Part shown: in pieces, positions 26,881 through 64,000 of the stretch
Numbering within the stretch: position 1 is the first letter of the stretch
Layout: each line of letters starts with the position of its first letter
Source: Bacteroidetes bacterium GWF2_43_63
GTDB lineage: Bacteria; Bacteroidota; Bacteroidia; Bacteroidales; DTU049
Assembly: GCA_001769275.1 (NCBI GenBank)
Contig: MEOQ01000045.1
Location: 129,821 to 193,820 of the forward strand
Length of the DNA stretch: 64,000 nucleotides
Reading direction: 5' to 3'
Notes under the pieces: model-generated
Seen by the model: the letters and a program-made list of their open reading frames with translations, nothing else
What the model was told of the DNA's origin: nothing
Database searches by the model: none
Program-made: the position numbers and the translations under genes

Positions 26881-27066
26881 GAATACTGAATATGCAATGG
26901 AACATCGAACACTGAATAAGGAATGTTGAAGTAAACATCGAATCATGAACACTGAACAAGGAATGACGAAGTAAAGGCAGAAATATTTGAAGCGCCTTTC
27001 TACTTTATAAACTTTAAGAACTTTGGATTACTTCGTCATTAAACCTTCCTTGTTCCTTGTTCATTA
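26881..27066. repeat. Direct plus inverted repeats of the TTCATGATTCA/CCTTGTTCC word family
   Basis: catcgaacactgaataaggaatgttgaagtaaa (26904-) and catgaacactgaacaaggaatgacgaagtaaa (26945-) are direct copies. ttacttcgtcattaaaccttccttgttccttgttcat (27028-27064) is the inverted partner. Confidence 0.75.
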
Positions 27067-27068
27067 TT

Positions 27069-41250: not shown

Positions 41251-41469
41251 GAGGATGTCTCAAAATTGAAAATCGTTACGATATTCCATCGTTCCGGCCG
41301 GTTCGAAATCCCTCGAAGGGTTCTGAACCCTTCGAGGGATAATATTCGGCCGGAATATGGAATCGTCGTAACAGCTTCAAAAACAACGATTCCATACCCT
41401 TTCGCTCCTACGTCGCTTTCGGACGATGGAATATTATTTTTGAAGAAGGCGATATTTTGAGACATCCTC
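41251..41469. repeat. Hairpin-rich element with perfect 16-bp terminal inverted repeats, copy A
   Basis: gaggatgtctcaaaat (41251-41266) pairs with attttgagacatcctc (41454-41469). Nested hairpins include ccctcgaaggg/cccttcgaggg, ccggccg/cggccgg, tatggaatcgt/acgattccata and acgatattccatcgt/acgatggaatat. Confidence 0.9.
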
Positions 41470-47146: not shown

Positions 47147-47316
47147 CCACAACGCAGAGAGCTTGCTTCGCAAGGCACTCAGGTTGTGGGAGGGTTTTGA
47201 AGCCAACCTCTCCACCGTAGAATAGCGTCGCATTGTGCGACCTGGGTGCGCTGGACTGAAACTCAAATGTTGTCCACAATGCAGAGAGCTCGCTACGCGA
47301 GGCACTCAGGTTGCGG
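47147..47316. repeat. Direct repeat of a ~43-bp module (CCACAAYGCAGAGAGCTYGCT.CGCRAGGCACTCAGGTTG)
   Basis: Copies lie at 47147-47189 and 47274-47316, with a third at 53646-53687. Each contains a short ctcgc/gcgag-type hairpin. Confidence 0.85.
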
Positions 47317-47373
47317 AAGGGCATTGAAGTCTTTTCCTATAGTCAGCAAACAAATCCAATTTTTGAATAAATG

Positions 47374-48221: not shown

Positions 48222-48493
48222 GTACTTCGATGCGATGAAGACTCGTGAAACATATTGCTGAATGCTTCATCGCTCAGTGTGACAGTTTTTTTGGTTCCGC
48301 TGTCATTCAGTCACGAAAGCTTTCGTGAGTTTGCAATAAAGACTTTTATATGAAACCAGCTTCAAATGTATCCCCGCCAGCTTTGCAGCGGGCAGGGAAG
48401 AACGACAGCGGGTTTTAGTTAGTCGCACTTCGATACGATGAAGACGGGTGTAGCGCAAAGCTTATGCGTCATCACTCAGTGTGACAATAGTTT
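48222..48493. repeat. Mosaic repeat including a 189-bp GCTGTCA-ended palindromic element (48299-48487)
   Basis: gctgtcattcag (48299-) pairs with cactcagtgtgaca (48474-48487). Internal perfect palindrome tcacgaaag/ctttcgtga. Shared words are gcacttcgatac and cagcttcaaatgtatc. Confidence 0.75.
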
Positions 48494-50080: not shown

Positions 50081-51061
50081 TTATTTATAATTCAACAGAT
50101 AATAATACAAGATTGGAAACACGATGGGCATCAGCCAGAGTATGATGAACGCGGCTTTCCGACGGGCGTTGTACATCAGTCGGGTCCAGTAAAAAACAGT
50201 TGCAAGTCCGTAAATTGAAAATAAAATATTCGTATTGAACAACGACGAAATCATTGCAGGAGCAAGTGCTATCAACGAAAACAGGATCACTGAATAACTC
50301 CGGCGGACAGATATTTTTGATTCACTAACTCTTGAATGAACAATCAAAGCGAGTAAAAATAAAAGAGCCGGACAGCCGTAGAAACTGGCCGGGAATGCAA
50401 ATTGGAGCAAGTCTTCTTGCAATACAAAAGCACCCGGATTGTCAAGTAAAATATTTGTTTTGTTAGTCAGAAAATACCAGAACAAAACAAAAAAAGCAGG
50501 AGTCAGAAAACCGGTCAACCACACAAGGGTGCGGCGGAACGATATGTTCTGACTGATGATCATGGTGATAATTCCTGTAACAAAAAACAAAACAGCAAAT
50601 GCACCATTCAGTAGCAAAAATCCACTTAAGATTGCGGCGGTAAGTGTCCGGCGAAGTACCGTCCCCTGCGATTCTCCGGGCAAAAGCTGATAAAGAATAA
50701 GGAGGAAAGCTGTCCAATAAATCGACACCATCAATCCGATGCTCCAATCCACAATGGTGAAATGAATGACTGGAAGAATAAAAAAGAGCATGTATTCTTT
50801 TCGTGACACTTCGAGATTTCTTGTCGAAATGAGCCACAGAAGCAGTGTTGAGGCTGCAATAAATAAAACGCGAAGAATTACAATCCAGCTGAAACTGAGT
50901 GTAAGCACTGTTTCCGTAATGCCGGCAAGCCAGGGGTGTAATTGAATATTGGTGTTTGGTTCTCCGTTGAGTATCAGAAAAACAAGCGTAGCAAGCCAGA
51001 GCAGCATGAAAACGAATTTCATCTGCGAGTTGATGACTCTTTCGGCATTAAACGATCTCAT
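50081..51061 (-). CDS. Polytopic membrane protein of unknown function
   Basis: About 9-10 hydrophobic segments. The start is uncertain: 51061 overlaps the purD end by 14 bp, and the alternative Met at 51022 does not. Confidence 0.65.
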
Positions 51062-52331
51062 ACGCTTTTAAATCAAGTCCGATATCGCTGCGGTTTGTTT
51101 TGCCTTCGAAATGCACATGGTCAGCCAGATTGTAGGCCGCTGTGCGGGCTTCGTCCAGCGTGTTGCCCGTGCCCACAACAGCCATCACACGACCGCCTGA
51201 GGTAACTACATTGTCATGGAGCACTTTTGTTCCGGCATGAAAAATCAAATGATTTCCTTCGGGTAAAGAAATTGTTTTGCCTTTTTCATAGTCGCCCGGA
51301 TATCCTTTCGATGCCAGCACAATTGACAATGCTGTCATTGGGAGTGTCTCGGTTTTATAATCTTTCAGATTTCCGGTGGCTGCAGCTGTAAGCATTTCTG
51401 CAAACGAGCCTCCGATGCGGGGCATAACCACCTGTGTTTCGGGATCGCCCATACGGACATTGTATTCGATCACGAATGGATCGCCGTTCACATTCATCAA
51501 TCCGAAGAAAACAAATCCGCAATAATCGATGTTGTCTTTCTGAAATCCGCTGATGGTGGGTTCTACAACGCGTGTTACCACTTTATCCATAAATTCCTTT
51601 GTGGCGAAAGGAACCGGAGAGACCGTTCCCATGCCGCCTGTATTCGGTCCGGTATTTCCATCGCCGATGCGCTTGTAATCTTTTGCGCCGGGCAACAGGA
51701 CATAATTTTTCCCGTCCGTCAGGGCAAAAACCGACATTTCGATTCCATCTAGAAACTGTTCTATCACCAGTGTTTTACCGGCTTCGCCAAAAATATTATC
51801 TTCGAAAACCGATGCGATATGATTGACGGCTTCGTCGGCTGATTCGGTAATAACAACTCCTTTGCCGGCAGCCAACCCGTCTGCTTTCATCACGTAGGGG
51901 CCGCTGTGGCTGCGGATATACGATTGTGCTTCTGTTTTTTGCTCCGAAGTGAATGTGGCGTAGGCCGCTGTGGGTATGTCATGACGAATCATGAATTGTT
52001 TTGCAAAATCCTTGCTCCCTTCGAGCATGGCTCCATGAGCCGATGGACCGACGATCAGAAGATTTATGAAGCGTGGATCTTTTTTCAATAAATCAGTGAA
52101 TCCGTTTACCAGCGGCTCTTCTGGCCCGACAAGAATCATGTCGATGCTGAGCGAAATAATTTGTTCCAGCAGGTTTTCAAAATCGTTGAAAGAGTAGGGG
52201 AGATTTGTGCCGCATTGCAGTGTGCCTGCATTTCCGGGCGCGATAAAAATATTTTCTTTGCCGATATCGCGCGCCAGTCGCCATGCCAATGCATGCTCAC
52301 GCCCGCCCGAACCTGTGATGAGAATTTTCAT
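51048..52331 (-). CDS. purD: Phosphoribosylamine--glycine ligase
   Basis: Start set to MKILITGSGGREHALAW. Downstream ATP-grasp motifs include ..KADGLAAGKGV.. and ..EYN.R.GDPE.. Confidence 0.95.
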   Translation of the reverse strand: MKILITGSGGREHALAWRLARDIGKENIFIAPGNAGTLQCGTNLPYSFNDFENLLEQIISLSIDMILVGPEEPLVNGFTDLLKKDPRFINLLIVGPSAHGAMLEGSKDFAKQFMIRHDIPTAAYATFTSEQKTEAQSYIRSHSGPYVMKADGLAAGKGVVITESADEAVNHIASVFEDNIFGEAGKTLVIEQFLDGIEMSVFALTDGKNYVLLPGAKDYKRIGDGNTGPNTGGMGTVSPVPFATKEFMDKVVTRVVEPTISGFQKDNIDYCGFVFFGLMNVNGDPFVIEYNVRMGDPETQVVMPRIGGSFAEMLTAAATGNLKDYKTETLPMTALSIVLASKGYPGDYEKGKTISLPEGNHLIFHAGTKVLHDNVVTSGGRVMAVVGTGNTLDEARTAAYNLADHVHFEGKTNRSDIGLDLKAYEIV

Positions 52332-52359
52332 AAAACAACTTTGCTGCAAATTTACAATT

Positions 52360-52500
52360 TAGACGCGGAATAACGCGGAAAATAGTATAAGCCCCAACGG
52401 ATAGACGCGGAGAGAGAGGTTTAGACGCGGATTAACGCGGAATATATTAAAACTGACGGATGGACGTGGAGAAAGAGGATTAGACGCGGAATATTTCAAA
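52360..52500. repeat. ~60-bp tandem repeat carrying five TAGACGCGGA decamers
   Basis: The decamer occurs at 52360, 52402, 52422, 52461 (variant tggacgtgga) and 52481, with spacing 42/20/39/20 bp. It starts 29 bp upstream of the purD start codon. Confidence 0.85.
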
Positions 52501-52920
52501 ACGCGTTTTGACGGATTCAAAGGTGCTTCATTTAAAACCACGTGGAACGTGGCAAGCTGTGACATGTCGCTCAATTTGTCCCTGGGGTGGAGTCTATCCC
52601 GCTGCCTCCTTCGATACACCGCAAGCAGATATCTCGCAAAGAGCTGCGAGAGCGGCACTCAGGATGACAGCGAGGGTGTGCCATTCAATTTTGGGTTGCG
52701 ATGCACGCATTGCTGGTGGTCTCTGGATGACAGCGGCGGGGCCAAGGGTTACCGATGTTGGACTGCAGAGTTTGCTCTACAAGAGGCGGAGGCGCATCTT
52801 ATGGAGCTCCGCAGCTTTTTAAATCCTTCGGATACTCGATCTCGTAACGTTTGTAACGTCTGTAACGTGTAACGAAAGTCTTACTAAACCTTAACCTGGG
52901 CGCGCGTCTCCCGACGCGTG
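52501..52920. repeat. Mosaic intergenic repeat composite
   Basis: Words present are ccacgtggaacgtggcaagctgtgac, cttcgatac, actcaggatgacagcg, a GTAACG array (ctcgtaacgtttgtaacgtctgtaacgtgtaacg, about 52840-52873) and ctgggcgcgcgtct (also at about 53724). Confidence 0.75.
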
Positions 52921-52923
52921 ACC

Positions 52924-53472
52924 CTATTCTCCCATGTTGAATTTGACGATCAGATGAAAGAAGAATGTTTCATTGTCGATGATGGTGAAAGCAAAATCGA
53001 GGGGCATGCCGGCTTTGCGGCGGATCTCGAGGATGCCAAGGCCATTGCTTCCGTTTGGACTCTCAGCGATAACAGGTTTTTCGGCATCAGCCTGACGTAC
53101 ATTTTCTTTCATGCTGCCACCGGCTTTGCGGTTGGCTTCGCGGATTCTTTTTTCAACAACCGTTCTGCGGGTGATACTTACGGCGTTTCCGCAATCAATT
53201 TTAAATCCCTGCCGGGTGCGTGTTGCCAGAAAAACAGCCGGATAAAGCGGGTATTCGTTATGCATATAAATATTCTGCAAAATCTCGCTGGCGGCAAGCA
53301 GAATCCGTTTTCTGATGCGGGTTTCCTGCTCTCCGAACAACCCTTCCATATTGTCAAGAATCCTGTCCGATTTCTTCTCAGAAATGGTGCCTTTGAATTG
53401 AGAAATCACATCGGCAGAATTGATGTTCTCCTTGATAAAATCGTCAATATTGAATTTCGATCCTGGTTTCAT
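52924..53472 (-). CDS. Small GHKL-like kinase, SiaB/DUF6272-like (tentative)
   Basis: 182 aa. ..ISQFKGTIS...RKRILLAASEILQNIYMHN.. and ..NGLGILEIRRKAG.. resemble the N-box and G-box of small anti-sigma-type Ser/Thr kinases. There is no partner gene nearby. Confidence 0.45.
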   Translation of the reverse strand: MKPGSKFNIDDFIKENINSADVISQFKGTISEKKSDRILDNMEGLFGEQETRIRKRILLAASEILQNIYMHNEYPLYPAVFLATRTRQGFKIDCGNAVSITRRTVVEKRIREANRKAGGSMKENVRQADAEKPVIAESPNGSNGLGILEIRRKAGMPLDFAFTIIDNETFFFHLIVKFNMGE

Positions 53473-53639
53473 GGGGGTTCAGTGAATTAATTTTTTCTGC
53501 AGATCATCAATGAACAATGTCATGTCTGCCCAAAGGTATAAAATAATTTTAATTATTATCGGTCATTTTTTTAACATGAATGGATAAAATTGGGAAAGCT
53601 GGGCAATCCTACAAAAACTTCTTTTTGAAATTCCCTGCA

Positions 53640-53979
53640 ACATTTCCACAACGCAGAGAGCTCGCTCCGCGAGGCACTCAGGTTGTGAAAATATTCAATG
53701 GGCGAGCCATCTCAAATTCAATCTGGGCGCGCGTCTTCTGCTTGTGTTTACGCCACCTTTACAACCGAGACACGCAGTCTTCTTGTCCATGTGGCTTTCA
53801 CGTGAAGCGTCCTGGAAGAGTCGGAGAGGGAATGCACAGTGCACAACGCCAACGCGCCGCCTGCCTTTGTCTCGCTTGTAACGTTGTAACGCTTGTAACG
53901 TGTAACGCTTGTAACGCGTAACGTCTGTAACGCCTGTAACGCCACGCTTCCAGCGTGATAAATTCCACGCTTGTAACGT
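53640..53979. repeat. Mosaic intergenic repeat composite ending in a nine-copy GTAACG array
   Basis: Third copy of the CCACAACGCAGAGAGC module (53646-53687). The 65-bp segment 53797-53861 is about 90% identical to 59223-59287. GTAACG occurs at 53878, 53886, 53895, 53902, 53911, 53918, 53927, 53936 and 53973. Confidence 0.85.
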
Positions 53980-55197
53980 CTATTTCTCCAATAAAAATTT
54001 CCGGATATGACAATGCTCAATGCCTTCAAAACTAGCACCCTCAAATGCATCCATGGTAATTACTTTTTTCGGATATTGATCTTTTATCTTCATAAGATTG
54101 CCAAATTCCCGCTCTACCGTTTTTTCTCCTTTCAAATTCAGCGCAACCTGTATATACATCTTTTCCTGATTCTTTTCGCACACAAAATCAATTTCACCTG
54201 TGCCAATGCTGCCCACTTTTACATCCCACCCCAAAAACAACAAATGGTTAAATGCGACATTTTCCAATATCTTTCCCAAATCCTGCGGGCGGTATCCAAT
54301 CACTGCATGGCGTAGGCCCGTGTTCTCAAAATAGTTTTTTCCACCTGTTTCGAAAATCCGCTTACCTACAATATCGTAGCGTTCAGCGTGATGTATAATA
54401 AAGGCATTGGCCAGATAGCTGATGAAAAGTTGTATCTGATTCGGCGCAATATTCACCTGCTGAGATTTTAAATAATCACTGATTTTTTTTGCCGAAAACA
54501 AGCTCCCAGTATTATCGGCCAGAAATTGTATCAGCTTTTCCAGCAACTTGTGACTACGTATATTGTATCGATTGATAACATCGCGATATACAATAGTGGC
54601 GTAAATACTTTTCAGATATTCCATCAATACTGCATTTTCCTGGGGAAGATGCATCAGATAGGGTAAACCGCCATAACGAAAATACCGATCCAGTGTTTTG
54701 TCAGAATCCTGAATCTGGTGAAAATGCAAAAACTCGGGATAGGACAAGCTGTAAATTTTTATCTCCACAAAACGGCCACTGAGCAAACTGGAGAGCTCGC
54801 CTGATAACAGCTCAGCATTGCTGCCCGTGCAGTAAATATCGCAGTTCCCTTTTAGCAAAAGGCTGCGCAAAGCTTTTTCAAATGCCGGTATTTCCTGTAT
54901 TTCATCAATGAAGATATAATTCATCCGATCACTTACTATATTTGATGCAATGTAATCGTGAAGGTCTTTTGCCGTCTGCAGGTGATCGAACAACAAATCC
55001 TCCTTGTTTATGTATATCACCGGCACATCATGCTCCAAACCGCGCAGATGCTGTATGATCTGAAAAAGGATGTAACTCTTCCCGACCCGGCGCTGCCCCG
55101 TGAAAACTTTAATCACGTTTTTTCCGATAAAAGGGATTATTCTTGACAGATATTCATGTCGCTTTTTTAATCCCGCAGGCAGAGTTGTTTTGTTCAT
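53980..55197 (-). CDS. AAA+ ATPase with C-terminal DUF4143 (COG1373-type)
   Basis: Walker A ..TGQRRVGKSY.., Walker B ..YIFIDEIQEIP.., ..TGSNAELLSGELSSLLSGRF.., and a C-terminal ..GEIDFV.. nuclease-fold-like motif. Confidence 0.85.
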   Translation of the reverse strand: MNKTTLPAGLKKRHEYLSRIIPFIGKNVIKVFTGQRRVGKSYILFQIIQHLRGLEHDVPVIYINKEDLLFDHLQTAKDLHDYIASNIVSDRMNYIFIDEIQEIPAFEKALRSLLLKGNCDIYCTGSNAELLSGELSSLLSGRFVEIKIYSLSYPEFLHFHQIQDSDKTLDRYFRYGGLPYLMHLPQENAVLMEYLKSIYATIVYRDVINRYNIRSHKLLEKLIQFLADNTGSLFSAKKISDYLKSQQVNIAPNQIQLFISYLANAFIIHHAERYDIVGKRIFETGGKNYFENTGLRHAVIGYRPQDLGKILENVAFNHLLFLGWDVKVGSIGTGEIDFVCEKNQEKMYIQVALNLKGEKTVEREFGNLMKIKDQYPKKVITMDAFEGASFEGIEHCHIRKFLLEK

Positions 55198-55299
55198 ATA
55201 TATAATTGTGTTTATAGTATCTATGCAAATATACGAAAGTTATAAACATGATTACAATAAATAGTAATAATGTGAAAACATTGGGGTCAAATAGTCAAG

Positions 55300-55570
55300 G
55301 GTTGCCTTTGCTCCGTCTTTGCGGCTATCGCGCATATCGGTGGCTGACGCGTAAATTGCACAGCGCGCAAAGCTCGGCGCATGCGGCATGCGGCAAGGCT
55401 TTGCATCGCTCCCACGCTTATTCCCGCTCTCGCTCTCACGCTCGCTCTGATTTATTCAACCTCTATGCGTCGCATAGCGACCTGTCACGATTGCTATCGT
55501 GAGCGTTGAAGAAGGACAAAGCACATCACCTCATCGCCAACGCGCCCCCTCGCCAACGCGCCGGGAAGGA
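55300..55570. repeat. Mosaic intergenic repeat composite
   Basis: gcgcacaaagctcggcgcatgcggcatgcggcaaggctttgcatcgctccc (compare 60905-60950), a CGCTCTCGCTC run, and the 42-bp segment 55471-55512, which is identical to 57384-57425. Confidence 0.85.
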
Positions 55571-55641
55571 CAGAGCAGTAGCAATATTGACCGCGCCATT
55601 GAATGAATAAGATTTATGTTGCATCATGGAAAAAAATTGAT

Positions 55642-55649
55642 TATCTTTG
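55642..55649 (+). promoter_or_regulatory. Candidate -7 box (TAtcTTTG) for the hipB-like/hipA operon
   Basis: tatctttg lies 61 nt upstream of the TTG start at 55710. Confidence 0.4.
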
Positions 55650-55709
55650 CTTGCTTAATAGATAAAATATTATCAATTAAACCGAAAAACCAAATTAAAG
55701 ACTAAAATA

Positions 55710-56030
55710 TTGGTCGAAATATCGGAAATATTAAACCGTAACAATCCAAACAGCATTGCCTTGGAACTGGCAAAGCGTGCGAAAAAATTGCGCTTAGCCG
55801 GCAATATGTCGCAGCAGATGCTGGCGGAAAAATCAGGTGTGAGCCTGGGCTCAGTGAAACGGTTTGAGCAACTTGGTCTGATTTCGTTACAGCATTTATT
55901 GCATATTGCTGTTGCGTTGAATGCGGCCGAAGATTTTATACAGTTATTTTCACAACCGCATTATGAAAGTATTGATGCTCTTGTGAAACTCAAAATGGCG
56001 GAAAACCGGAAACGTGTGCGAAGAAAATGA
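55710..56030 (+). CDS. XRE-family helix-turn-helix antitoxin (HipB-like)
   Basis: ..LRLAGNMSQQMLAEKSGVSLGSVKRFE.. HTH motif. There is a 4 bp ATGA overlap with hipA. The TTG start is inferred because no in-frame ATG lies upstream of the HTH. Confidence 0.75.
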   Translation: MVEISEILNRNNPNSIALELAKRAKKLRLAGNMSQQMLAEKSGVSLGSVKRFEQLGLISLQHLLHIAVALNAAEDFIQLFSQPHYESIDALVKLKMAENRKRVRRK

Positions 56031-57106
56031 AGATACCATCAACAGATATGATTACGGTGAAATGCGGCTCGCACATAGCTGGTCGAATGATATTGTCGCC
56101 GGAACGATTAATGGTTTTTGAGTACGACGCCAATTGGCTAAAGAATGGTTTTGCGCTTTCACCATTTTTTCTCCCGCTGAAGGCCGGCGCCATGACTGCC
56201 CGGCGAGAGCCATTCCATGGTAACTTCGGCGTTTTCGCCGACAGTCTTCCGGATGGATGGGGAAATCTTTTGTTGGATCGTGTATTGCGAAAATACGGAC
56301 TGGATCCGGCTTCGCTCACAACCATTCAGCGGCTTTCGCTTGTTGGAAATAACGGCATGGGTGCATTGACCTATGAACCCGCATTTGCAGTATCTGAACC
56401 GCAGGCATTGGAAGATCTCAACGAAATTGCTGCTGAAGTTGAGATGATAATGAATGACCAGGCATATATGGAATCTGTCGATGAGTTGTACCGTCAGGCA
56501 GGATCATCGGCGGGTGCCAGACCCAAGGTGCTGATTATGCACGAAGGTGAGCACTGGCTGGTGAAATTTGCATCCTCAATGGATCCGGACAATATTGGTG
56601 AAATAGAATTCGAATACTCGCAGCGCGCACGCAGAGCCGGAATTGAAATGCCTGAAACCCGGCTTTTTGAAGGAAAGTATTTTGGCGTGAAACGTTTCGA
56701 TCGTGAAGGAGAAGAGCGGATTCATATGATATCCGCTGCGGGATTGCTGCATGCCGATTTTCGGGTGCCATCGCTGGATTATACCGAGTTGATTAAAGCC
56801 ACCAGAGCGCTGACCGGGAGTGTTGTAGAGGTCGAGAAAATGTATCGGCTTATGGCTTTCAATGTCCTGATTGGGAATAACGATGATCACGCGCGCAACT
56901 TTTCTTTTATTTACAAAAAAGGTGAATGGAAATGCTCACCGGCATATGATTTACTTCCGTCGGTAGGAATGAATGGCGAACACTGCACAGCTGTTGCGGG
57001 TAGCGGACGTCCCGATGAAGGCGACATGCTGCGTGTTGCTGCTCAATGTAGCATTGAGAATGTGCGGGCCAAAGAGATTATTGCGGAAGTTGGAAGGTCT
57101 TTATAG
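56027..57106 (+). CDS. hipA: HipA-family Ser/Thr kinase toxin (type II TA)
   Basis: N-terminal coupling domain ..FADSLPDGWGNLLLDR.., ..GSSAGARPKVLI.. and catalytic ..IGNNDDHARNFSF.. Confidence 0.85.
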   Translation: MKIPSTDMITVKCGSHIAGRMILSPERLMVFEYDANWLKNGFALSPFFLPLKAGAMTARREPFHGNFGVFADSLPDGWGNLLLDRVLRKYGLDPASLTTIQRLSLVGNNGMGALTYEPAFAVSEPQALEDLNEIAAEVEMIMNDQAYMESVDELYRQAGSSAGARPKVLIMHEGEHWLVKFASSMDPDNIGEIEFEYSQRARRAGIEMPETRLFEGKYFGVKRFDREGEERIHMISAAGLLHADFRVPSLDYTELIKATRALTGSVVEVEKMYRLMAFNVLIGNNDDHARNFSFIYKKGEWKCSPAYDLLPSVGMNGEHCTAVAGSGRPDEGDMLRVAAQCSIENVRAKEIIAEVGRSL

Positions 57107-57615
57107 TGATGCATAGCGCTTCAGGCATGCGGCATAGAGCACGACGCATGCGGCATGAAGCACAACGCAAAGCGCACAAAGCTTAATGCTTAACGATTGC
57201 ACAAAACCCTAAGCCTTCAACTACATCCCGCTCCCGCTCTCATTCTCGCTCTGATTCCCGCTCTCGCTCAGATGATTCCCGCTCTCGCTCTCACGCTCGC
57301 TCTGATTTTTTCAGCCTCTCTGCGTCGCGCCTAGTCATCACGTGAAACCACGTAAAACGTGGCAAGCTGTGACAGGCTGTTTCACGCATAGCGACCTGTC
57401 ACGATTGCTATCGTGAGCGTTGAAGAGGCACAGCGCACAACGCATAGCTTAATGCTTAAGAGCTTAAAGATTAGACAAAACCTTAAACTTTCAACTTTAA
57501 GCTTTAAGCAATCGCCTCATCGCCCCCTCGCCTGTAACGTGTAACGCCTTCCGCTTCCAGCGGAATAAATTCCACGCCTGTAACGCCCGTAACGATTGTA
57601 ACGACCATATTTGTA
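57107..57615. repeat. Mosaic intergenic repeat composite (GCATGCGGCATG left, CGCTCTCGCTC middle, CACGTGAAAC, GTAACG array right)
   Basis: 57110-57195 is GCATGCGG-type and 57225-57310 is a CGCTCT run. 57384-57425 is identical to 55471-55512, and 57533-57576 is identical to 59326-59369. Confidence 0.9.
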
Positions 57616-57984
57616 ATTAAGCCAATAATATTTTTTATCTTTGCGATAAGTCTCGCAACGAAAATTTTCGCAATACATGGAAATGAATTCCTTTAGATTT
57701 GGAACCCATTGCTCCGAAACGAAAGGCATTCTTTAGTCTGACATAGGCGCAGCAGTCAATCTATGGTCCAACATTTTTGCATTTTCAGAGATTTTATGGT
57801 CTGAAAAAACAACATTTATTGATCATTATTGGTTTGGAAAAACGAAAATTGTAGCTGAATAAATTTGAAAAGAACACATTATCAGCATAATATACTCCAA
57901 GGTTGCCATGCGCAATAATTGGTACAACAATGTTAATAAGGTTGAAATATGGAAATTAAAATTCCAAAATGCAACCATAATTAT

Positions 57985-57992
57985 TATCTTTG
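57985..57992 (+). promoter_or_regulatory. Candidate -7 box (TAtcTTTG) for the AAA+/DUF4143 gene at 58029
   Basis: tatctttg lies 37 nt upstream of ATG 58029. Confidence 0.45.
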
Positions 57993-58028
57993 CAATGGAA
58001 ATTAGTGGTATCACCAGTCTATGAATCT

Positions 58029-59186
58029 ATGATAACACGTTTTTTATATTCTGAACTATCCTGGTCCATGCAAAAGTTCCCGGCTGTCTGCATCACGGGC
58101 CCACGACAATGTGGAAAGACAACGCTTGCAAAACAATTGTGTTCTGCCTCTGCCAAAGATTTCATCTATCTTGATCTTGAAAAGCATGAAGATTTGATGC
58201 GCATTAAAGATGCCGGCCTTTTTTTTCGTGATAACAGGGATAAACTGATTGTTCTGGACGAAATTCAACGAAAACCAGAGCTTTTCTCAGAAATCAGAGC
58301 CGAAATTGATGCCTTCAAACGCTCCGGCCGCTTTCTGATTCTTGGATCGGCCAGCCCCGATATTATTAAAAACACATCAGAAACACTTGCTGGCAGAATC
58401 CGATATATCCATTTGCATCCTTTCATTCTGAGTGAATTGAATGATCCTGTGTCGTGGAAGGACTTGATGTTCTGGGGCGGATTCCCCGATGTTGTACTCG
58501 ATAATGATGAGAGATTCAGGAAGGAATGGCTCGATAACTTTATTTATACCTATCTCGAACGCGATTTGCCTATGCTCGGTTTAAAAGCTGATCCTGTACA
58601 GATTCGCCGATTGTGGGAAATGCTTGCGTGGCAGGCCGGCAGCCTTCTCAATTCCTCAAATCTCGGCCGCTCTCTTGGCGTTTCAAACCATACTGTAAAT
58701 AATTATCTCGATTATCTCGAAGGGGCTTTCATGATTCACCGTATTGAACCATTCGATGCCAATATCGGGAAACGAATCGTTAAGTCTAAAAAGGTATTTA
58801 TTGCCGATACCGGACTTTTACACCGCCTGTTGCGTCTTAGTTCTTACGACCAGCTTATGGGCAATGCGATGGCAGGTCATTCCTGGGAAAACTTTGTATT
58901 CAATCAGCTGCAGCCACTATTGAAAAACGACTGGAATATCTGGTTTTACCGCACACATACTGGTGTTGAAACCGATCTTGTACTTGGAAAAGGAATGAAA
59001 CCCCTGGTGAGTATTGAAATAAAACTTTCATCGTCTCCTGGTATGACACGCGGCTTTGCAACAGCGATTGCAGATCTTGGAACTCTGAAGAATTTTATCA
59101 TTATCCCTGAAAGCGAAAAATTCAGAGTAAGGGAAGATGTTACTGTCTATGGCCTTCAACAGTTTATCGCCGAATTACCTTTGTAA
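58029..59186 (+). CDS. AAA+ ATPase with C-terminal DUF4143 (second, divergent paralog)
   Basis: Start moved to MITRFLYSEL.. Walker A ..TGPRQCGKTT.., Walker B ..LIVLDEIQRKP.., ..LGSASPDIIKNTSETLAGRI.., and C-terminal ..GVETDLVL.. Confidence 0.85.
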   Translation: MITRFLYSELSWSMQKFPAVCITGPRQCGKTTLAKQLCSASAKDFIYLDLEKHEDLMRIKDAGLFFRDNRDKLIVLDEIQRKPELFSEIRAEIDAFKRSGRFLILGSASPDIIKNTSETLAGRIRYIHLHPFILSELNDPVSWKDLMFWGGFPDVVLDNDERFRKEWLDNFIYTYLERDLPMLGLKADPVQIRRLWEMLAWQAGSLLNSSNLGRSLGVSNHTVNNYLDYLEGAFMIHRIEPFDANIGKRIVKSKKVFIADTGLLHRLLRLSSYDQLMGNAMAGHSWENFVFNQLQPLLKNDWNIWFYRTHTGVETDLVLGKGMKPLVSIEIKLSSSPGMTRGFATAIADLGTLKNFIIIPESEKFRVREDVTVYGLQQFIAELPL

Positions 59187-59440
59187 CGCCTTCCGACCTT
59201 CAAGAGTCGCGACTGTGTCACGTTTCACGTGAAGCGTCCTGGAAGAGTCGGAGAGAGAACGCACAGCGCCCAACGCCAACGCGCCGCCCACCTTGTCACT
59301 TTGTTACCTTGTCACTCTGTTACTCTGTAACGTGTAACGCCTTCCGCTTCCAGCGGAATAAATTCCACGATTGTAACGCCACGCTTTCAGCGTGATAAAC
59401 TCCACGCCTGTAACGCCTGCATCCGATCAAAACACATCTG
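59187..59440. repeat. Mosaic intergenic repeat composite ending in a GTAACG array
   Basis: 59223-59287 is about 90% identical to 53797-53861 and 59326-59369 is identical to 57533-57576. Hairpins present are ccgcttccagcgg and cacgctttcagcgtg. Confidence 0.9.
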
Positions 59441-59513
59441 CGTCCAGTATGCCGGCAGCAGTTGAAATATTTCGTTTTTATGCAATATATTTGCTGTAAT
59501 GAATAAAATAGAC

Positions 59514-59521
59514 TATATTTG
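59514..59521 (+). promoter_or_regulatory. Candidate -7 box (TAtaTTTG); a second copy lies at 59486-59493
   Basis: tatatttg lies 20 nt upstream of ATG 59541. The other copy lies 6 nt upstream of ATG 59499, so the true start is ambiguous. Confidence 0.4.
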
Positions 59522-59540
59522 TACAGTAAAGAACAATTTA

Positions 59541-60806
59541 ATGATTAAAAACATTATTATTCAGCAGCAGGAAGAAAAATTATTTTTGCTAAACCGGCCA
59601 TATATTGAACGTATTGAAGCCGGTGAAAAAACAAAATTATTAAAGACAAGTCTTATTAAAGTCATTGCAGGGCCCAGAAGAGCCGGAAAGTCGGTGATTG
59701 CTCTTCAGCTTTTGAAAGAGAAAAATTTTGCCTATCTGAATTTTGACGATGATTTGTTGTTGAAACACTTCGCCGAAGACAAGGTGCTGCAAGCATTGCA
59801 TCAGATATACCCGGGGTTTGAATATTTATTGCTCGATGAAATTCAAAATCTTGATGGCTGGGAATTATGGGTGAATAAATTGTATCGCCGTGGTATTAAT
59901 ATGATTATCACAGGTTCCAATGCCAGATTGCTTTCACATGAACTGGCCTCGGGTCTGACAGGCCGTTTCGTGCAGTTGACAGTTTTGCCATTTGGCTTTG
60001 CCGAAGTCATTAGGTTTAGCAACTTGTTGCCCGCAGAAAAGCCTCAGGCCACTCTGACAAAGAAAGCCAGATTGCTTGCAATGCTCGAAAATTATCTTTC
60101 CAATGGCGGCTTTCCTGAGACATTGTTGAATCAAGGGCTATTGGTAAATTATCTTTCATCCTTGTTTGATTCTATTTTATTAAAGGATATTCTGAATCGT
60201 TTTCATATTCGCCAAACCCGGCAGTTATACGATTTGTCGCACTACCTGCTGTCGAATTACACAAATTGTTTTACCTTTAACCAGTTGAAAGAATCGCTTG
60301 ATTTCAACAGCGTTGCAACCGTTCAGAAATTTACCGGTTATCTCGAAGAACCCTATCTTTTTCAGCATCTCACACGATACAATACCAAAATAAAAAGTCA
60401 GCAGAAAGCACCACAAAAAATATACATTGTCGATAATGGATTTGTAAAAGCCAGGTCGTTTGAATTGTCGCCCAATTACGGCCGCCTGCTTGAAAATCTT
60501 GTATTTGTCGAATTGTTGCGACGAAATTTTCTGCCCGAATTGTCATTGTTTTATTACCGTACCCGTAATGACCGTGAAGTTGATTTTTTGCTTCGGGAAG
60601 GAAATAAGACAGATCAGTTGATTCAGGTCTGCTATGCGATGGATCAACCCAAAACAATCAAACGGGAAATTAGTGCGCTTATTGAAGCAGCTGAGGAACT
60701 CAAATGCACAAAGCTTTTGATAATTACCTGGGACAAAGAGGAAGTGATAGAACAGAAAAATCTTCGTATTGTTGTTGTACCGGCCTATAAGTGGCTAATG
60801 GAATAG
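59541..60806 (+). CDS. AAA+ ATPase with C-terminal DUF4143 (third, divergent paralog)
   Basis: Walker A ..AGPRRAGKSV.., Walker B ..YLLLDEIQNLD.., ..TGSNARLLSHELASGLTGRF.., and C-terminal ..REVDFLL.. The alternative start at 59499 would add 14 aa. Confidence 0.8.
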   Translation: MIKNIIIQQQEEKLFLLNRPYIERIEAGEKTKLLKTSLIKVIAGPRRAGKSVIALQLLKEKNFAYLNFDDDLLLKHFAEDKVLQALHQIYPGFEYLLLDEIQNLDGWELWVNKLYRRGINMIITGSNARLLSHELASGLTGRFVQLTVLPFGFAEVIRFSNLLPAEKPQATLTKKARLLAMLENYLSNGGFPETLLNQGLLVNYLSSLFDSILLKDILNRFHIRQTRQLYDLSHYLLSNYTNCFTFNQLKESLDFNSVATVQKFTGYLEEPYLFQHLTRYNTKIKSQQKAPQKIYIVDNGFVKARSFELSPNYGRLLENLVFVELLRRNFLPELSLFYYRTRNDREVDFLLREGNKTDQLIQVCYAMDQPKTIKREISALIEAAEELKCTKLLIITWDKEEVIEQKNLRIVVVPAYKWLME

Positions 60807-61188
60807 AGCATAGGGCTTGCGGCATGCGGTCCCGCCTTCGTCGGGATAAACTCCGGGTATGCGGTGCACAACGTCACGCTTGCAGCGTGATAATCTCCAC
60901 GCACAGCGCACAAAGCTCGGCGCATGCGGCAAGGCTTTGCATCGCTCCCGCTCTCATTCTCGCTCTCTCTCTCGCTCTGATTCCCGCTCTCGCTCAGATG
61001 ATTCTCGCTCTCGCTCTCACGCTCGCTCTGATTTATTCAACCTCTCTGCGTCGTGAAGCGACCTGAGTGCGTTGAAGAAGAACAAAGCACATCGCCTCCA
61101 CGCCACATCGCATCATCGCCACATCGCCACCTCGCTCCCACGCCACCTCGCCAAAAAAAAATATACATGGCTCATTCAGAACTGACAA
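60807..61188. repeat. Mosaic intergenic repeat composite
   Basis: gcttgcggcatgcgg at the left edge, 60905-60950 matching 55364-55412, a CGCTCT run (60945-61035), and a CATCGCCAC/CCTCGC run (61090-61152). Confidence 0.85.
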
Positions 61189-61293
61189 CCAATAACCATT
61201 AACCAATAACCATTAACCATTAACCAATAACCAATAACCAATAACCAATAACCATTAACCATTAACCATTAACCATTAACCATTAACCAATAA
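61189..61293. repeat. 15-unit heptanucleotide array of two variants (CCAATAA / CCATTAA)
   Basis: The units are exactly contiguous in the order A T A T T A A A A T T T T T A (A=ccaataa, T=ccattaa). The array is flanked on both sides by actgac and ends 23 bp before a TAtaTTTG box. Confidence 0.95.
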
Positions 61294-61315
61294 CTGACCA
61301 CTGGCAGCTAATTCT

Positions 61316-61323
61316 TATATTTG
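61316..61323 (+). promoter_or_regulatory. Candidate -7 box (TAtaTTTG) almost abutting ATG 61328
   Basis: tatatttg ends 4 nt before the annotated ATG. This implies either a leaderless transcript or use of a downstream Met. Confidence 0.4.
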
Positions 61324-61327
61324 CAAA

Positions 61328-62686
61328 ATGTGGACATTCAACCCCTCCGATTATATAACCCTCTGGGACTGGCTCCTGTCGTTTATGTATATGGGCATGG
61401 CCATGATGGTTTTCTGGGTGTATATCCGCTTCCGAAAAAACGATGACCCTGCATATCGCTGGTTTATTCCCGCCCTCTTTTTCAAATTTCTGGGCGGTAT
61501 CGCCGTGCTGATGATCTATGCATATTATTACACAGCAGGAGGTGATACTTATTCTTATTTCGATAACACCAAAGTTCTTATACGGCTATCTGGAGATGAT
61601 TTTTCTTCGGCATTTCAGTTTTTGCTGGGCGATAACAGCTGGGAATCCTATTCAAAATTCACTTTCGAATCCGGGCGCCCATGGACGGATCTGTATGCTG
61701 ATGACAATGCCTGGGCGGTCAGCCGGTTCACTTATCCAATTGTAATATTAGGATTGGGCCGAATAATGACTTCAACCATTCTTTTCAATGTATTTGCTTT
61801 CATTGGTCCCTGGAAACTCTTCAAATTTCTCAATCAGCGTTACCCCGGACAAACAGCCCGCCTGGCCTTTGCCATCTTCTTCATTCCATCCTGTGTTTTC
61901 TGGGGTTCGGGTTTGTATAAGGACAGCTTCACGCTTTCAGCCACGTTGTGGATTCTGTATTCCATCATGGCCATTTCGTTTGAAAAGAAAAAAATTGCAC
62001 TCAATATTTTTTTGATTCTGGTCAATTCTTATTTAATAATCAGCATCAAACCCTATATTTTTGTGGCGCTCATGCCGGCCGCACTCATTTTGTTTCTGTA
62101 TTCATCGGTGCAGAATATCCGTAACAAGGCACTCCGTGTGCTGGTGCTTCCATTGGGCACAGCAATTCTGCTTGTCGGAGGATTATCCGCTTATTCTTAT
62201 CTTTCTCCATCACTTGGAAAATACGGAAGCATGGATTCTATGATGGAAAAATTAGTGGTCACCCGCGAGGACTTTATAAACAACAAAACCTACAGCTCCA
62301 ACTTTTTCGATATCGGAGATTTTGATCCAACCATGGGGGGCCTTGCACGAAAGGCACCGCTGGCCTTCATTTACGGATTGTTCGGTCCTTTTCCCTGGCA
62401 GGTGGCCAACCCCGTGATGGCCATCAGTTCGCTCGAGGGAATGTTGTTTCTGGTTTTATTTGTAATCGCATTGCGAAATGTATTGTTTCGAAAGGGCGCA
62501 TCCAGAGTGCTTTCCGATCCGGTGATCATAGGGTTTCTCATTTTTTCTCTCATGTTTATCATCTTTGTGGGATTAAGCACCGCCAACTTCGGATCACTGG
62601 TCCGGTATCGCATTCCGGCGCTGCCGCTGTTCTTTTTCTGTGTGATGTATATTATTGGCAAAACGCGGAGAGATCAGCTGGAGTAA
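61328..62686 (+). CDS. Polytopic membrane protein (polysaccharide polymerase/glycosyltransferase-like topology; function unknown)
   Basis: 452 aa with about 11-12 hydrophobic segments and a mid-protein soluble loop. It neighbours a HisF-like (WbuZ-type) sugar-modification gene. Confidence 0.6.
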   Translation: MWTFNPSDYITLWDWLLSFMYMGMAMMVFWVYIRFRKNDDPAYRWFIPALFFKFLGGIAVLMIYAYYYTAGGDTYSYFDNTKVLIRLSGDDFSSAFQFLLGDNSWESYSKFTFESGRPWTDLYADDNAWAVSRFTYPIVILGLGRIMTSTILFNVFAFIGPWKLFKFLNQRYPGQTARLAFAIFFIPSCVFWGSGLYKDSFTLSATLWILYSIMAISFEKKKIALNIFLILVNSYLIISIKPYIFVALMPAALILFLYSSVQNIRNKALRVLVLPLGTAILLVGGLSAYSYLSPSLGKYGSMDSMMEKLVVTREDFINNKTYSSNFFDIGDFDPTMGGLARKAPLAFIYGLFGPFPWQVANPVMAISSLEGMLFLVLFVIALRNVLFRKGASRVLSDPVIIGFLIFSLMFIIFVGLSTANFGSLVRYRIPALPLFFFCVMYIIGKTRRDQLE

Positions 62687-62689
62687 ACA

Positions 62690-63262
62690 CTTTATGTGAA
62701 AATGTGCGACTGCGTCGATGTGCGGCTTCGCCGTATGTGTGAATATAAGCAACATAAAAACTGGCCATTGGCTACTGAATACTGGCTACTAGTAAGAAGG
62801 TGTGAAAATGTGGGGCTCACGTAAAACAGCTTGTCACGTTTCACGTGATGACACGTTCGCCCATGCGGCGCGGAGTTTATCCAGCTGGAAGCGGGGCGCA
62901 TGTGAGAATTTTAGATTCTGCAAATGATGTGAAAATGTGAGGCTCACGTAAAACAGCTTGTCACAGCTTGCCACGTTTCACGTGGTTTCACGTGATGACA
63001 TGTTCGCCTATGTGAGAATTAGAGATACCTTAAAAGCTATGAGTTATGGGTTATAAGTTATGAGTGTAGCGTTGTAACGTCTGTAACGACACAGCCCCTT
63101 CTTTAACCTCTCTGCGTCGCACAGCGACCTGAGTGCGTTAAAGAAGCCCATTACTTCTCAGCTTCTGCTCAGAGCTGATCGCTGATTATCCCGAGTCCTG
63201 CGGACGGGACTTCGCTGACAGCTGATGACTGAGATGTAACGATTGTAACGTGTAACGAAAGG
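62690..63262. repeat. Mosaic intergenic repeat composite with a long direct repeat rich in CACGTG and two GTAACG clusters
   Basis: gtgaaaatgtg[ga]ggctcacgtaaaacagcttgtcac..gtttcacgtgatgaca[ct]gttcgcc occurs at about 62802-62870 and about 62929-63012. GTAACG clusters lie at 63070-63093 and 63236-63258. Confidence 0.85.
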
Positions 63263-63264
63263 TT

Positions 63265-64000
63265 CTAAAAGCAACTGATTTCTTCTGCAGCCGGGTAATT
63301 AATCAACACTGCCTTATTCGGACCATAAAACACAAACATGCTTCCGGCAGCAAGAGCAGTAGCGTGTGCCTGATGGTATGCATCGCGCATGTGCTGCAGG
63401 TTTCCGGCACCCCCCAATGCAACAACGGGAATGGTGACTGCAGCAGATATTTTTGCAATCAGATTCAGATCATATCCATTCATAGTGCCATCGTGATCGA
63501 TGGATTGCACTATAATTTCACCGGCGCCCTGATGTTGCATCTCGATGGCAAATTCAACCGGATTTAAACCGCTGGCTTTTGTGCCATTGATAATATAAGT
63601 TTGCTCGTCGCCTAAAAATTTCTTTTTCACATCCATGCATACAACAATGGTCGAAGCGCCAAAAGTATCGGATGCTTTTCTGATAAATTCTTTATTCAAC
63701 ACCGCCTGAGTATTAATAATCACTTTCTCGGCACCGGCATTGGTCAATTCGCGAATTTGCTCAATAGTAGAAATGCCGCCACCAACAGCGAAAGGCATAT
63801 TGGCTTCTTCGCCCACTTCGCGCACAAAATCAACCGAAATGCAGCGGCTTTCCCGCGTTGCTTTTATATCGAGAAAAACGAGTTCATCTGCTTTCAGATC
63901 ATTGAATATTTTTACAGCATTGATGGGGTCTCCGATGTATTTCGGATTCCCAAACCGGACGGTTTTCACAAGCACCTGGTCTTTTAGTAATAGGACGGGT
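63265..64000 (-). CDS. HisF-like cyclase subunit (WbuZ/HisF2-type, sugar amidination), 5' end outside the window
   Basis: ..VKTVRFGNPKYIGDPINAVKIFNDLKADELVFLDI.. and ..GGGI..IEQI..L...GAEKV.IN.. The reading frame stays open upstream of the track Met to position 64000 (..PVLLLKDQVL..). Confidence 0.8.
   Translation of the reverse strand, partial: PVLLLKDQVLVKTVRFGNPKYIGDPINAVKIFNDLKADELVFLDIKATRESRCISVDFVREVGEEANMPFAVGGGISTIEQIRELTNAGAEKVIINTQAVLNKEFIRKASDTFGASTIVVCMDVKKKFLGDEQTYIINGTKASGLNPVEFAIEMQHQGAGEIIVQSIDHDGTMNGYDLNLIAKISAAVTIPVVALGGAGNLQHMRDAYHQAHATALAAGSMFVFYGPNKAVLINYPAAEEISCF

Follow-up and report, generated by a model that had tools for sequence, protein, structure and literature searches.

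Tandem arrays of short intergenic words with mini-hairpins have been worked out mainly in Cyanobacteria, and for Bacteroidetes they have been noted only in passing. The cyanobacterial STRR heptamer arrays with embedded SDR were reportedly described by Elhai et al. in 2008 (Genome Res) and by Mazel et al. in 1990. Here we analysed a 64,000-nt stretch of contig MEOQ01000045.1 (the window) from 'Bacteroidetes bacterium GWF2_43_63', a metagenome-assembled genome (MAG) of an uncultured groundwater Bacteroidales from the Rifle aquifer, in which the gaps between the genes of a hypervariable island are filled with mosaics of such words. Among other described systems, SDR are cited together with REP tandem arrays oriented by chromosome half (PMC3116915), BIME contain regularly spaced REPs of alternating orientation (PMC2817692), and the palindrome of REPs has at one of its ends a conserved tetranucleotide, GTAG or CGTC (PMC3733652). 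TAACTGA-type heptamer direct repeats were described in Beggiatoaceae, Cyanobacteria and five Bacteroidetes (MacGregor 2015, PMC4679880); there, Gramella and Aequorivita have other heptamer arrays in the same gaps, close relatives with the same gene order lack the heptamer repeats, and in Microcystis the repeats show a regularity of orientation along the chromosome.

All seven gaps between 52350 and 63264, together with one gap at 14603-14905, are composites of recurring words with periods of 6-9 nt and, for some, 16-59 nt; this word-mosaic feature is real and unusually ordered. The words were sorted into the families A (TGTAACG), a (TGTCACC), B (GCATGCGG or GCACAACG, also CACAACG), C (CGCTCTCGCTC), D (CCACGCC or CATCGCC), E (CTCTCTGCGTCG-hairpin-GCGTTGAAGAAG), T (TTAAGC words), H (a hairpin followed by ATAAAYTCC) and X (the CACGTGAAAC module). 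A preliminary description of the region, made from the sequence alone, had seen all eight gaps as mosaics with long modules in common, more ordered than random low-complexity DNA, and our counts show them to be far more so: different gaps have 544 10-mers in common in direct and 66 in inverted orientation, vs. means of 10.2 and 9.6 and maxima of 25 and 21 in 200 dinucleotide shuffles. Tandem Repeats Finder detected arrays of AACCATT (15.4 copies), GCATGCG (4 copies), AGCTTAA, AAACTTT and TATGAGT, as well as 8-9-nt TGTAACG-based and CACATCGC arrays. From left to right the recurring order is B, C, E, D, TGTCACC, A, with the full B-C-E-D(-A) succession in three gaps and D-a-A in two more.

The 11-kb island holds all but one of the eight A-E-type composites present in about 85 kb of the genome, a near-confinement that the preliminary description had missed. 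Further gaps of the window carry unrelated repeat families. The 8-kb left flank contains six core gaps, three with hairpin-plus-T-run terminators and none with word mosaics, and in the 8.7-kb right flank a single gap contains different words (ATCCGTG, ATCTGCG) together with a reversed 16-nt GGGAGACGCGCGCCCA. The terminators in the left-hand core gaps are bidirectional (A-run, GC hairpin, T-run; L385 1395-1467, 4891-5107 and 7998-8061); none of the island genes has one of this type. At a distance of about 1-1.8 kb to the right of the window, different words, with a repeated unit of about 300 nt, make up the mosaic at L001 13712-14450, in which GGGAGACGCGCGCCCA occurs twice, being the reverse complement of window positions 52896-52911 and 53723-53737. 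As evidence on polarity this locus is weak either way; only the reversed 16-nt word is common to it and the window composites.

With one exception the composites read in the plus direction. The one outside the island, 14603-14905 between the ABC-F and DUF2461 genes, consists of B words, an H unit, B words, TGTCACC words and a TGTAACG array (14844-14891). The composite at 52350-52923 reaches from the purD promoter to the DUF6272 stop codon and contains an array of TTAGACGCGGA with a 59-nt period (52359-52493), a partial X module (52528-52564), a MITE-like stretch, CTTCGATAC...CACTCAGGATGACAGC, and a TGTAACG array (52843-52874). At 53640-53979 an CCACAACGCAGAGAGCTCGC hairpin repeat is followed by the TTTCACGTGAAGCGTCC module (53796-53861), D words and a TGTAACG array (53877-53978) of 8-9 units plus one hairpin unit, which stops 2 nt short of the minus-strand DUF4143 stop codon. 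The order B-C-E-D is seen at 55300-55570, with an intact hairpin GTCGC-ATA-GCGAC (~55468-55482) and the hairpin TCACGATTGCTATCGTGA. The composite at 57107-57615, reported as the longest, runs through B, TTAAGC words, C, E interrupted by X, B, TTAAGC words, D and a TGTAACG array (57533-57603) that includes a hairpin unit. At 59187-59440 we found the TTTCACGTGAAGCGTCC module (59223-59288), D words, TGTCAC/TGTTAC words and a TGTAACG array (59326-59415) with two hairpin units and a 37-nt period. The composite at 60807-61293 has the order B, H, B, H, B, C (14 TCGCTC units), E, D (8 units), poly-A and AACCATT array, and ends at the membrane-protein gene promoter; its last part (61187-61294) comprises 15 AACCATT/AACCAAT units of perfect period. 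This array ends in ...CCAATAACTGACC, which contains TAACTGA, about 20 nt before the membrane-protein promoter box, and relatives have wholly different words at its position. The exception in direction is 62687-63264, of mixed orientation, where X and H modules are inverted at 62810-63000; its forward parts are a TGTAACG array (63073-63088), an E module (63099-63146) and a terminal TGTAACG array (63235-63257) lying 8 nt from the hisF stop codon.

The long module matches listed in the preliminary description hold up, with small corrections. The match of 57533-57576 to 59326-59369 is exact (44/44); the 42/42 match is also exact but had been placed one base off (55471-55512 = 57385-57426), as had the TTTCACGTGAAGCGTCC pair (53796-53861 vs. 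59223-59288, 93.9% over 66 nt). The likeness of 55364-55412 to 60905-60950 is found in two alignments, 55358-55388 vs. 60901-60931 (96.8%) and 55386-55437 vs. 60922-60973 (90.4%), the two differing by one GCATGCG unit. TGTAACG arrays do sit at the high-coordinate edge of six gaps, with the one extra array at 63073-63088 in mid-gap. Words of the GCATGCGG type, said to mark the low edge, are found there (14603, 57107, 60807) but also in mid-gap (14743, 55379, 60922).

The composites had further been credited with a single polarity. Locally in the window this is right, with 90 words forward and three reverse (forward:reverse, A 33:0, B 19:0, C 20:1, D 12:1, H 6:1), but one module family is inverted, and the B and C families are flipped in relatives. 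The same words outside the composites are balanced in orientation. Reverse GTAACG arrays are indeed absent from the window, where 39 copies of the word are forward and 8 reverse, the latter all isolated (seven in coding DNA, one in the gap at 41274). All four configurations of flanking genes are present, and orientation in the window is independent of them, as had been claimed. High-scoring segment pairs between gaps amount to 48 direct (1359 nt) vs. 4 inverted (124 nt). Among the inverted pairs, the X module at 57334-57386 recurs at 62947-62999 (53 nt, 94%), the partial X module at 52528-52564 recurs at 62959-62995, and H at 60831-60855 recurs at 62871-62895.

In five syntenic relatives, oriented as the window, A is forward throughout (31:0) and D nearly so (31:3; 28:1 in L169). 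At the same time B (3:29) and C (0:13) are reversed with respect to the same anchor genes. As the order T, B, C, D, a, A is identical in the relatives and the window, B and C were flipped in place and not as a block. The A blocks are co-oriented in every contig that has several of them (six in the window, three in L169, three in L166, two in L140), and this invariant direction hints at a chromosome-level or functional constraint. At metagenome loci, orientation relative to A was 26:2 for H, 9:5 for B, 2:3 for D and 11:3 for X, with TGTCACC mostly forward; in L157 an H unit points against an A block that lies 6 kb from it. Next to the A block, the 3' end of a convergent gene was found in 21 of 33 cases, with the stop codon often 1-11 nt off, and a promoter in the other 12; the difference is not significant. 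GC skew at four-fold sites was uninformative on replication direction: it was -0.068 for plus-strand and +0.102 for minus-strand genes (plus-strand coordinates), so that the skew follows the coding strand, with a replication component of about +0.017.

The region between purD/DUF6272 and hisF is a hypervariable island of promoter-plus-gene cassettes, comprising HipBA and three DUF4143 ATPases. Genes were assigned by Pfam, with 49 open reading frames (ORFs) of the window scanned and the genes of the flanks (18.7 kb) taken from precomputed Pfam hits. On the left are purD (51048-52349, minus) and the DUF6272 gene (52924-53472, minus). Next come an AAA_14/DUF4143 ATPase gene (53980-55197, minus; cassette with promoter region 53980-55290), HTH (helix-turn-helix) and HipA genes (55710-57106, plus) forming with their promoter a toxin-antitoxin cassette (55596-57113, plus), a DUF4143/AAA_14 ATPase gene (57990-59186, plus; cassette with promoter 57938-59186) and a third one (59499-60806, plus; with promoter 59441-60806). 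A membrane-protein gene with no Pfam assignment, conserved in relatives (61328-62686, plus), and hisF (63265-63975, minus) follow on the right. The stretch 57616-57937 (plus) holds remnants of cassette genes that are intact in the relatives L127 and L130: 57624-57683, the promoter and start of an ATPase_2 gene, is 97% identical to L127, and 57759-57847 is 86.5% identical to L130. TAnnTTTG boxes, the Bacteroidota-type promoter consensus, could be read between each composite and the next gene start. Non-coding DNA makes up 36% of the island vs. 9.6% of the rest of the window. Of the other 39 scanned ORFs, most are housekeeping genes or lack a Pfam match. Transposases, integrases and reverse transcriptases are absent from the 49 scanned window ORFs, and the window has no tRNA or tmRNA gene.

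Syntenic loci of relatives were located via membrane-protein homologues, and further ones via look-ups of cassette proteins. The relatives carry other cassettes and unalignable mosaics in the island, and gene content varies between the conserved DUF6272 and membrane-protein genes. The window has DUF4143 (minus), HipBA, DUF4143 and DUF4143; L127 has a 92-aa gene and an ATPase_2 gene; L130 a 205-aa gene and AbiEii; L169 DUF4143, DUF4143 (minus), HipBA and a 23S_rRNA_IVP gene; and L172 a single DUF4143. The same cassettes occur in another order in relatives. Over 7.6 kb L169 matches L172 at 98.4% identity, until the two part at a composite. In sum, the preliminary description was right in what it described, over-generalised the polarity and missed the cassette-island context. 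As an observation apart, the purD-DUF6272 gap, filled in the window by composite 52350-52920, contains in relatives a small gene for a 23S_rRNA_IVP or bAvd-like four-helix bundle. Such IVP genes were seen at L169 4652-5026 and 11915-12286, L127 2-445, L172 8308-8682 and L173 8440-8931, the second of L169 lying mid-way in a long CCCCCACGCCATCACGCC array. The composite is not a decayed copy of this gene, since tblastn revealed no remnant.

Genomes with core genes of 66-79% identity have cassettes that are 90-99% identical. Between the window and L169, DNA identity is 93.4% for the HipBA cassette (L169 9570-11087) and 90.5% for the plus-strand DUF4143 cassette 57938-59186 (L169 6075-7322) vs. 79% for the purD core block; between L132 and L169 it is 98.7% for the minus-strand DUF4143 cassette vs. 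65.7% for the membrane-protein gene. As the cassettes are more alike than the core genes, these results show that they turn over and move horizontally. With all boundaries aligned, homology covers exactly promoter and gene, with its limits a few bases from the stop codon and immediately 5' of the promoter, in cassettes as in core genes; at 84-90% identity, the mosaics between homologous segments are unalignable between strains. In the most recent transfer (L132/L169) the end points are inside a TGTAACG array and a CTTAAGC array. These copies differ by 13 vs. 9 array units and a block of TTAAGC words of about 110 nt, with about 19 substitutions in 1442 nt, so unit gain and loss is the fastest mode of change. 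Every cassette is flanked by direct repeats of 42-93 nt with 94-100% identity, including 55420-55512/57275-57426 around the HipBA cassette, 57532-57587/59325-59380 (56 nt, 96%, containing the exact 44/44 match) around the DUF4143 cassette 57938-59186, and the pairs 57235-57327/60961-61053 (93 nt, 94.6%) and 53796-53861/59223-59288 (94%).

Hairpin modules are embedded in the arrays. The H unit at 53943-53970 (plus), inside a TGTAACG array, has the stem CACGC, loop TTCCA and stem GCGTG, followed by ATAAATTCCACG; more copies lie at ~57550-57577, 59343-59369, 59380-59406, 60875-60901 and 60831-60857, with a reversed one at 62871-62895. A scan of metagenomes gave 34 loci, from groundwater and digester samples, and in about 28 of these 34 independent loci H sits inside a TGTAACG array in the same direction, typically as GTAACG-ATT-YCCGC-TTYCA-GCGKR-ATAAATTCCACG-(n)TGTAACGAAAG. 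These genomes repeatedly show the block order TGTCACC words, TGTAACG words (with or without H), GTAACGAAAG. Window, related loci and metagenome loci together yielded 38 distinct copies. The covariation analysis that the preliminary description had called for supports the H stem: with the left arm of the hairpin left unconstrained in the search pattern, the 6-bp stem is 89.8% paired in 36 distinct sequences, with changes on both sides at two pairs (20 cells), and there are three perfectly paired types, TCCGC/GCGGA, CACGC/GCGTG and CCCGC/GCGGG, plus hybrids. None of 500 shuffles reached the observed value, and slid controls gave 20-49%. The bases 5' of the stem vary (AACGC, AACGT, CGATT, CGCCT), and the conserved flank is the 3' ATAAAYTCCACG. 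An alternative downstream pairing, GCGTG-ATAAATTC-CACGC, had no covariation support. The same hairpin-ATAAACTCCACG unit was seen at L144 3234-3255, L153 1681-1702, L158 8961-8982 and L159 414-435 and 2100-2121, where it sits not in TGTAACG arrays but in another repeat, of about 75 nt (AAAATAAAGCCCAGTCACGC...GCAATTGA), that is found in several contexts.

The X module (57334-57386, plus; GTCATCACGTGAAAC...GTTTCACG) lies within the loop of a GTCGC/GCGAC hairpin, whose flanks continue on both sides and which is uninterrupted at ~55468-55482. Its ends are inverted (CGTGAAAC...GTTTCACG), with 1-3 ambiguous duplicated bases at the insertion in the hairpin loop. Two E modules contain an 18-nt hairpin, TCACGATTGCTATCGTGA, and two others have AGT in its place. 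X and TCACGATTGCTATCGTGA are nested insertions or deletions of small hairpins. A large structured element can be dismissed, as DNA folds of four composites were no better than shuffles (z = -0.4 to -1.1); the only composite folding better was 62687-63264, with its inverted modules (z = -3.2). Intrinsic terminators were no commoner than in shuffles and none lay inside any composite. Rfam 15, scanned at gathering score over the whole window and by E-value over 52000-64000, gave nothing meaningful, the lone sub-threshold match being a spurious mir-753 (28.9 bits vs. a gathering score of 62). Neither a sponge for restriction sites (palindromes of 4, 6 and 8 bp are no denser in composites than elsewhere) nor C-rich Rho-loading regions fit the gaps, whose GC skew is not tied to the direction of the upstream gene and whose C-rich arrays are flipped in relatives.

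Taken together, these features can be accounted for if word arrays made by slippage, together with REP/SDR-like mini-hairpins, are homogenised and serve as both substrate and footprint of a recombination-driven cassette turnover, an account to which we give an even chance of being correct. The mosaics probably mark cassette swapping by recombination, and they may drive it. Arrays with short periods (6-9 nt) would grow and shrink via replication slippage or unequal exchange, hairpin modules of REP/SDR type (~30-55 nt) would be copied into arrays and into one another, and gene conversion or recombination between neighbouring gaps would homogenise the copies within a genome, leading to a genome-specific canonical arrangement and direction. 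Direct repeats of 42-93 nt are a sufficient RecA substrate for circle deletion and Campbell-type insertion. Through their flanking repeats, cassettes could be inserted, deleted and replaced Campbell-style, and such events would both produce and require a common repeat direction, regardless of how the enclosed gene is oriented; inverted copies would lead to inversion of segments and be selected against, which would explain their rarity. Recombination, slippage and copying of mini-hairpins would thus together give local polarity, shared modules, genome-specific arrangement, clustering in the island and cassette turnover. We infer slippage and conversion as the generating processes, and repeat-mediated recombination as the cause of the turnover and the polarity. 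Several points weigh against this account. Neither a recombination intermediate nor a circle junction turned up, nor did an empty site with a single composite; the source-genome DNA examined spans only about 85 kb, and the older cassette boundaries (HipBA and DUF4143, window vs. L169) lie outside arrays. A purely neutral or selfish origin also leaves unexplained the kept family order with in-place flips of B and C, as well as the single direction of A arrays in all syntenic relatives (31:0) and in multi-array contigs.

As recombination does not explain the flips and the invariant A direction, explanations by an HUH transposase or by a function in cis stay alive. According to the former, modules and arrays are non-autonomous single-stranded DNA (ssDNA) elements moved by an HUH Y1 transposase (IS200/IS605 TnpA or RAYT) encoded elsewhere, whose insertion is coupled to the lagging-strand template and gives one direction per replication arm. 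This would suit the compensatory changes in the small hairpins, the independence of polarity from genes, the co-orientation of TGTAACG arrays in multi-array contigs and syntenic relatives, and the H unit, which is preceded by AACG in every case and has CCACG at its end. In reverse complement TGTAACG includes TTAC, the target of IS608. Pseudomonas fluorescens REP tandem arrays, moreover, are oriented by replichore (PMC3116915). Yet no Y1 or other transposase is among the 49 window ORFs, nor is a RAYT or Y1 HUH gene among these or the called flank genes; B and C are flipped in syntenic relatives that are expected to share replication direction; the modules do not alternate as BIME REPs do (PMC2817692) and have no conserved GTAG/CGTC head; and replication direction is not inferable, as the skew tracks the coding strand. 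We therefore think a transposase origin unlikely. The other proposal, that the arrays are cis elements with oriented sites for a protein binding DNA or RNA, or insulators or terminators isolating acquired cassettes, draws on the conserved internal order TGTCACC-TGTAACG(+/- hairpin)-GTAACGAAAG across many genomes, the closeness to gene boundaries (3' end of a convergent gene in 21/33, upstream of a promoter in 12/33), the want in island genes of the hairpin-plus-T-run terminators of core gaps, the iteron-like GTAACG arrays with inverted CGTTACA words in phage and gut Bacteroidales contigs, and the regulatory role proposed for TAACTGA repeats (PMC4679880). The blocks are not conserved at orthologous positions, as relatives have other words 3' of DUF6272 and 5' of the membrane-protein gene. 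Since the gene association (21 vs. 12) is not significant, Rfam matches and intrinsic terminators are absent from the composites, whole composites fold no better than shuffles, and C-richness, a hint of Rho loading, is unrelated to gene direction, such a function too seems improbable to us.

One directly oriented composite at each cassette junction, with genes facing either way, could mean that composites are attachment sites of an attC-like site-specific cassette system with a dedicated recombinase that adds cassettes in succession, and both the cargo of toxin-antitoxin genes and ATPases, like that of chromosomal integrons, and the reordering of the same cassettes in relatives would agree with this. 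But Pfam scans of the 64-kb window and precomputed Pfam hits in the 18.7-kb flanks revealed no integrase or recombinase, cassette ends have no conserved core site, composites are highly variable (250-570 bp) and no imperfect palindromes, cassettes bring their own promoters, and composite families flip between strains, and we regard this proposal as very unlikely. The mosaics might instead be portable directional homology adapters, common to many gaps and genomes, of an integrase-free cassette system in Bacteroidales, functional analogues of attC, with cassettes (toxin-antitoxin, DUF4143 ATPases, Abi) excised as circles, inserted Campbell-style and swapped by homologous recombination between divergent genomes. 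The fixed family order with flips and the invariant TGTAACG direction would then reflect selection on adapter function; we rate this as a minor possibility, worth about one chance in several. Finally, low-complexity repeats can be mis-joined by short-read assemblers, and in L169, one of the relative contigs, an array is broken by an N-filled gap, so the mosaics could in principle be assembly or chimeric artefacts of the MAG. Positions 51328-64000 are, however, 100% identical in five assemblies (ENA ANAN16, two UBA, the Rifle GenBank MAG GCA_001769115.1 and JGI 3300001242; matching scaffolds 268-285 kb), and a Logan contig of run SRR6487689 matches 61260-62846 without a difference. Six assemblies from different pipelines thus agree over all seven gaps or parts thereof, and the module families recur in 34 independent metagenome contigs and several related MAGs. 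An artefact, which the preliminary description had named as something that would refute it, is excluded by this identity, and its probability is negligible.

TGTAACG arrays are found elsewhere too. Among the matches listed in the genome scan, which are mostly 9-mer arrays of Microcoleus and Calothrix, there are also arrays in Verrucomicrobia and gut Bacteroidales, and at least 119 viral contigs have them vs. 26 and 65 for two composition-matched control words. We did not accept the arrays in other phyla as evidence of homology, as such arrays are common and the excess is only 2-5-fold or greater; the H hairpin pattern had 0 matches in viral contigs. The 14 occurrences of TGTAACG in a Porphyromonas gingivalis paper were oligonucleotide sequences only. 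In viral loci (L175-L293, e.g. L177, L181, L203) and gut Bacteroidales (L038, L042, L066, L086; Alistipes/Prevotellaceae) TGTAACG triplets lie close to inverted GTTACA words, beside AT-rich and promoter-like stretches, and they look like iterons or operator arrays.

Other repeats of the window are of different kinds. Two long hairpins (ATATTCCATCGTCG...CGACGATGGAATAT) characterise a repeated element of about 130 nt, which occurs at 23536-23665 (plus) and 41251-41447 (minus), as well as in L001 12808-12930 and L130 2087-2230, in both orientations in the genome and relatives; its RNA folds at -52.8 kcal/mol vs. -28.2 for shuffles (z = -7.8), with no Rfam match. At 12553-12702, directly upstream of the ABC-F gene promoter, there are 2.8 copies of a 54-nt unit (97% matches). 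TTCCTTG/TTCATGATTCA words of this unit are found again, in both orientations, at 2580-2620, 26900-26974 and 27017-27070, and in the purD/DUF6272 flanks of relatives (L127 407-437, L130 287-306, L169 4520-4573), where the window has other words. A hairpin family, CCACAACGCAGAGAGCTYGC...GGCACTCAGGTTGTGG, and a MITE-like family, bounded by GCTGTCATTC(A/T)GAG ... CACTCAG(G/T)(A/G)TGACAGC with CTTCGATAC inside, are found at 47147-47202, 47274-47329, 53646-53701, 9500-9626, 48222-48493, 14650-14720 and 52590-52740.

Our results extend short-word arrays with mini-hairpins to an uncultured Bacteroidales lineage with testable features, namely strong polarity within a genome, conserved order with flips of single families between strains, and complete turnover outside promoter-to-stop segments. 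The mosaics are tightly tied to an island whose cassettes cross between genomes of 66-79% core DNA identity. Should the repeats be recombination substrates, the shuffling of defence and toxin-antitoxin cassettes in Bacteroidales without integrons would be explained by them; if they are not, concerted evolution and strand polarity of bacterial micro-repeats can still be studied cleanly in this system. The mosaics also carry a warning, since gene callers and assemblers will mis-handle such gaps.

The preliminary description had set the composites apart from classical BIME and attC, and this is correct as the defining features fail, but close analogues, STRR/SDR and heptamer repeats, have already been described. 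Like an integron, the island is an array of one- or two-gene cassettes, including toxin-antitoxin genes, with junction repeats of common polarity and strain-variable content. It differs in having no IntI (no integrase domain in window ORFs or flank genes), no R''-L''-L'-R' imperfect palindrome and no GTTRRRY core; no 57-141-nt palindrome of the attC type (RYYYAAC...GTTRRRY) is present, TGTAACG/CGTTACA do not fit the cores, the cassettes have their own promoters and both orientations, and the junction repeats are long variable mosaics. CRISPR are equally distinct, as the units here are 6-9 nt or irregular, with no constant repeat between unique spacers. With REP, BIME and REPIN the composites have in common many short extragenic hairpins, a mosaic build and insertion beside and into each other, and H, with its 5-6-bp stem, is a many-copy imperfect palindrome of 20-40 nt. 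BIME have alternating REPs and REPIN inverted doublets, whereas the modules here are direct (48 direct vs. 4 inverted segment pairs); H is without the GTAG/CGTC head, and the composites are mostly non-palindromic word array. As wholes they have no terminal inverted repeats, and no transposase-bearing parent element of a MITE was seen. The TAACTGA repeats are similar as intergenic heptamer direct repeats. Here the words are others (a single TAACTGA, at ~61290, stands beside the AACCATT array), there is no preference for positions directly ahead of start codons, and shared long modules, hairpin units and a link to cassettes are not described in PMC4679880. The mosaics are best seen as a new Bacteroidales variant of known intergenic micro-repeat mosaics, for which a role as recombination substrate in cassette exchange is plausible but unproven. 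STRR/SDR, with the TAACTGA repeats and REP/BIME/REPIN the nearest systems on record, are alike in kind when compared by description: both they and the mosaics consist of intergenic tandem arrays of several families of ~7-nt words, with 20-30-nt hairpin mini-elements in the arrays, compensatory stem changes and nested insertions, and both are confined to a coherent group of genomes. The taxon, the sole part of STRR/SDR identity that was checked, is not a Nostoc-type cyanobacterial subgroup, the host here belonging to Bacteroidota and not to Cyanobacteriota, and what sets this locus apart are its composites of 250-570 bp, with a recurring family order, strong local polarity and a place at the junctions of a cassette island.

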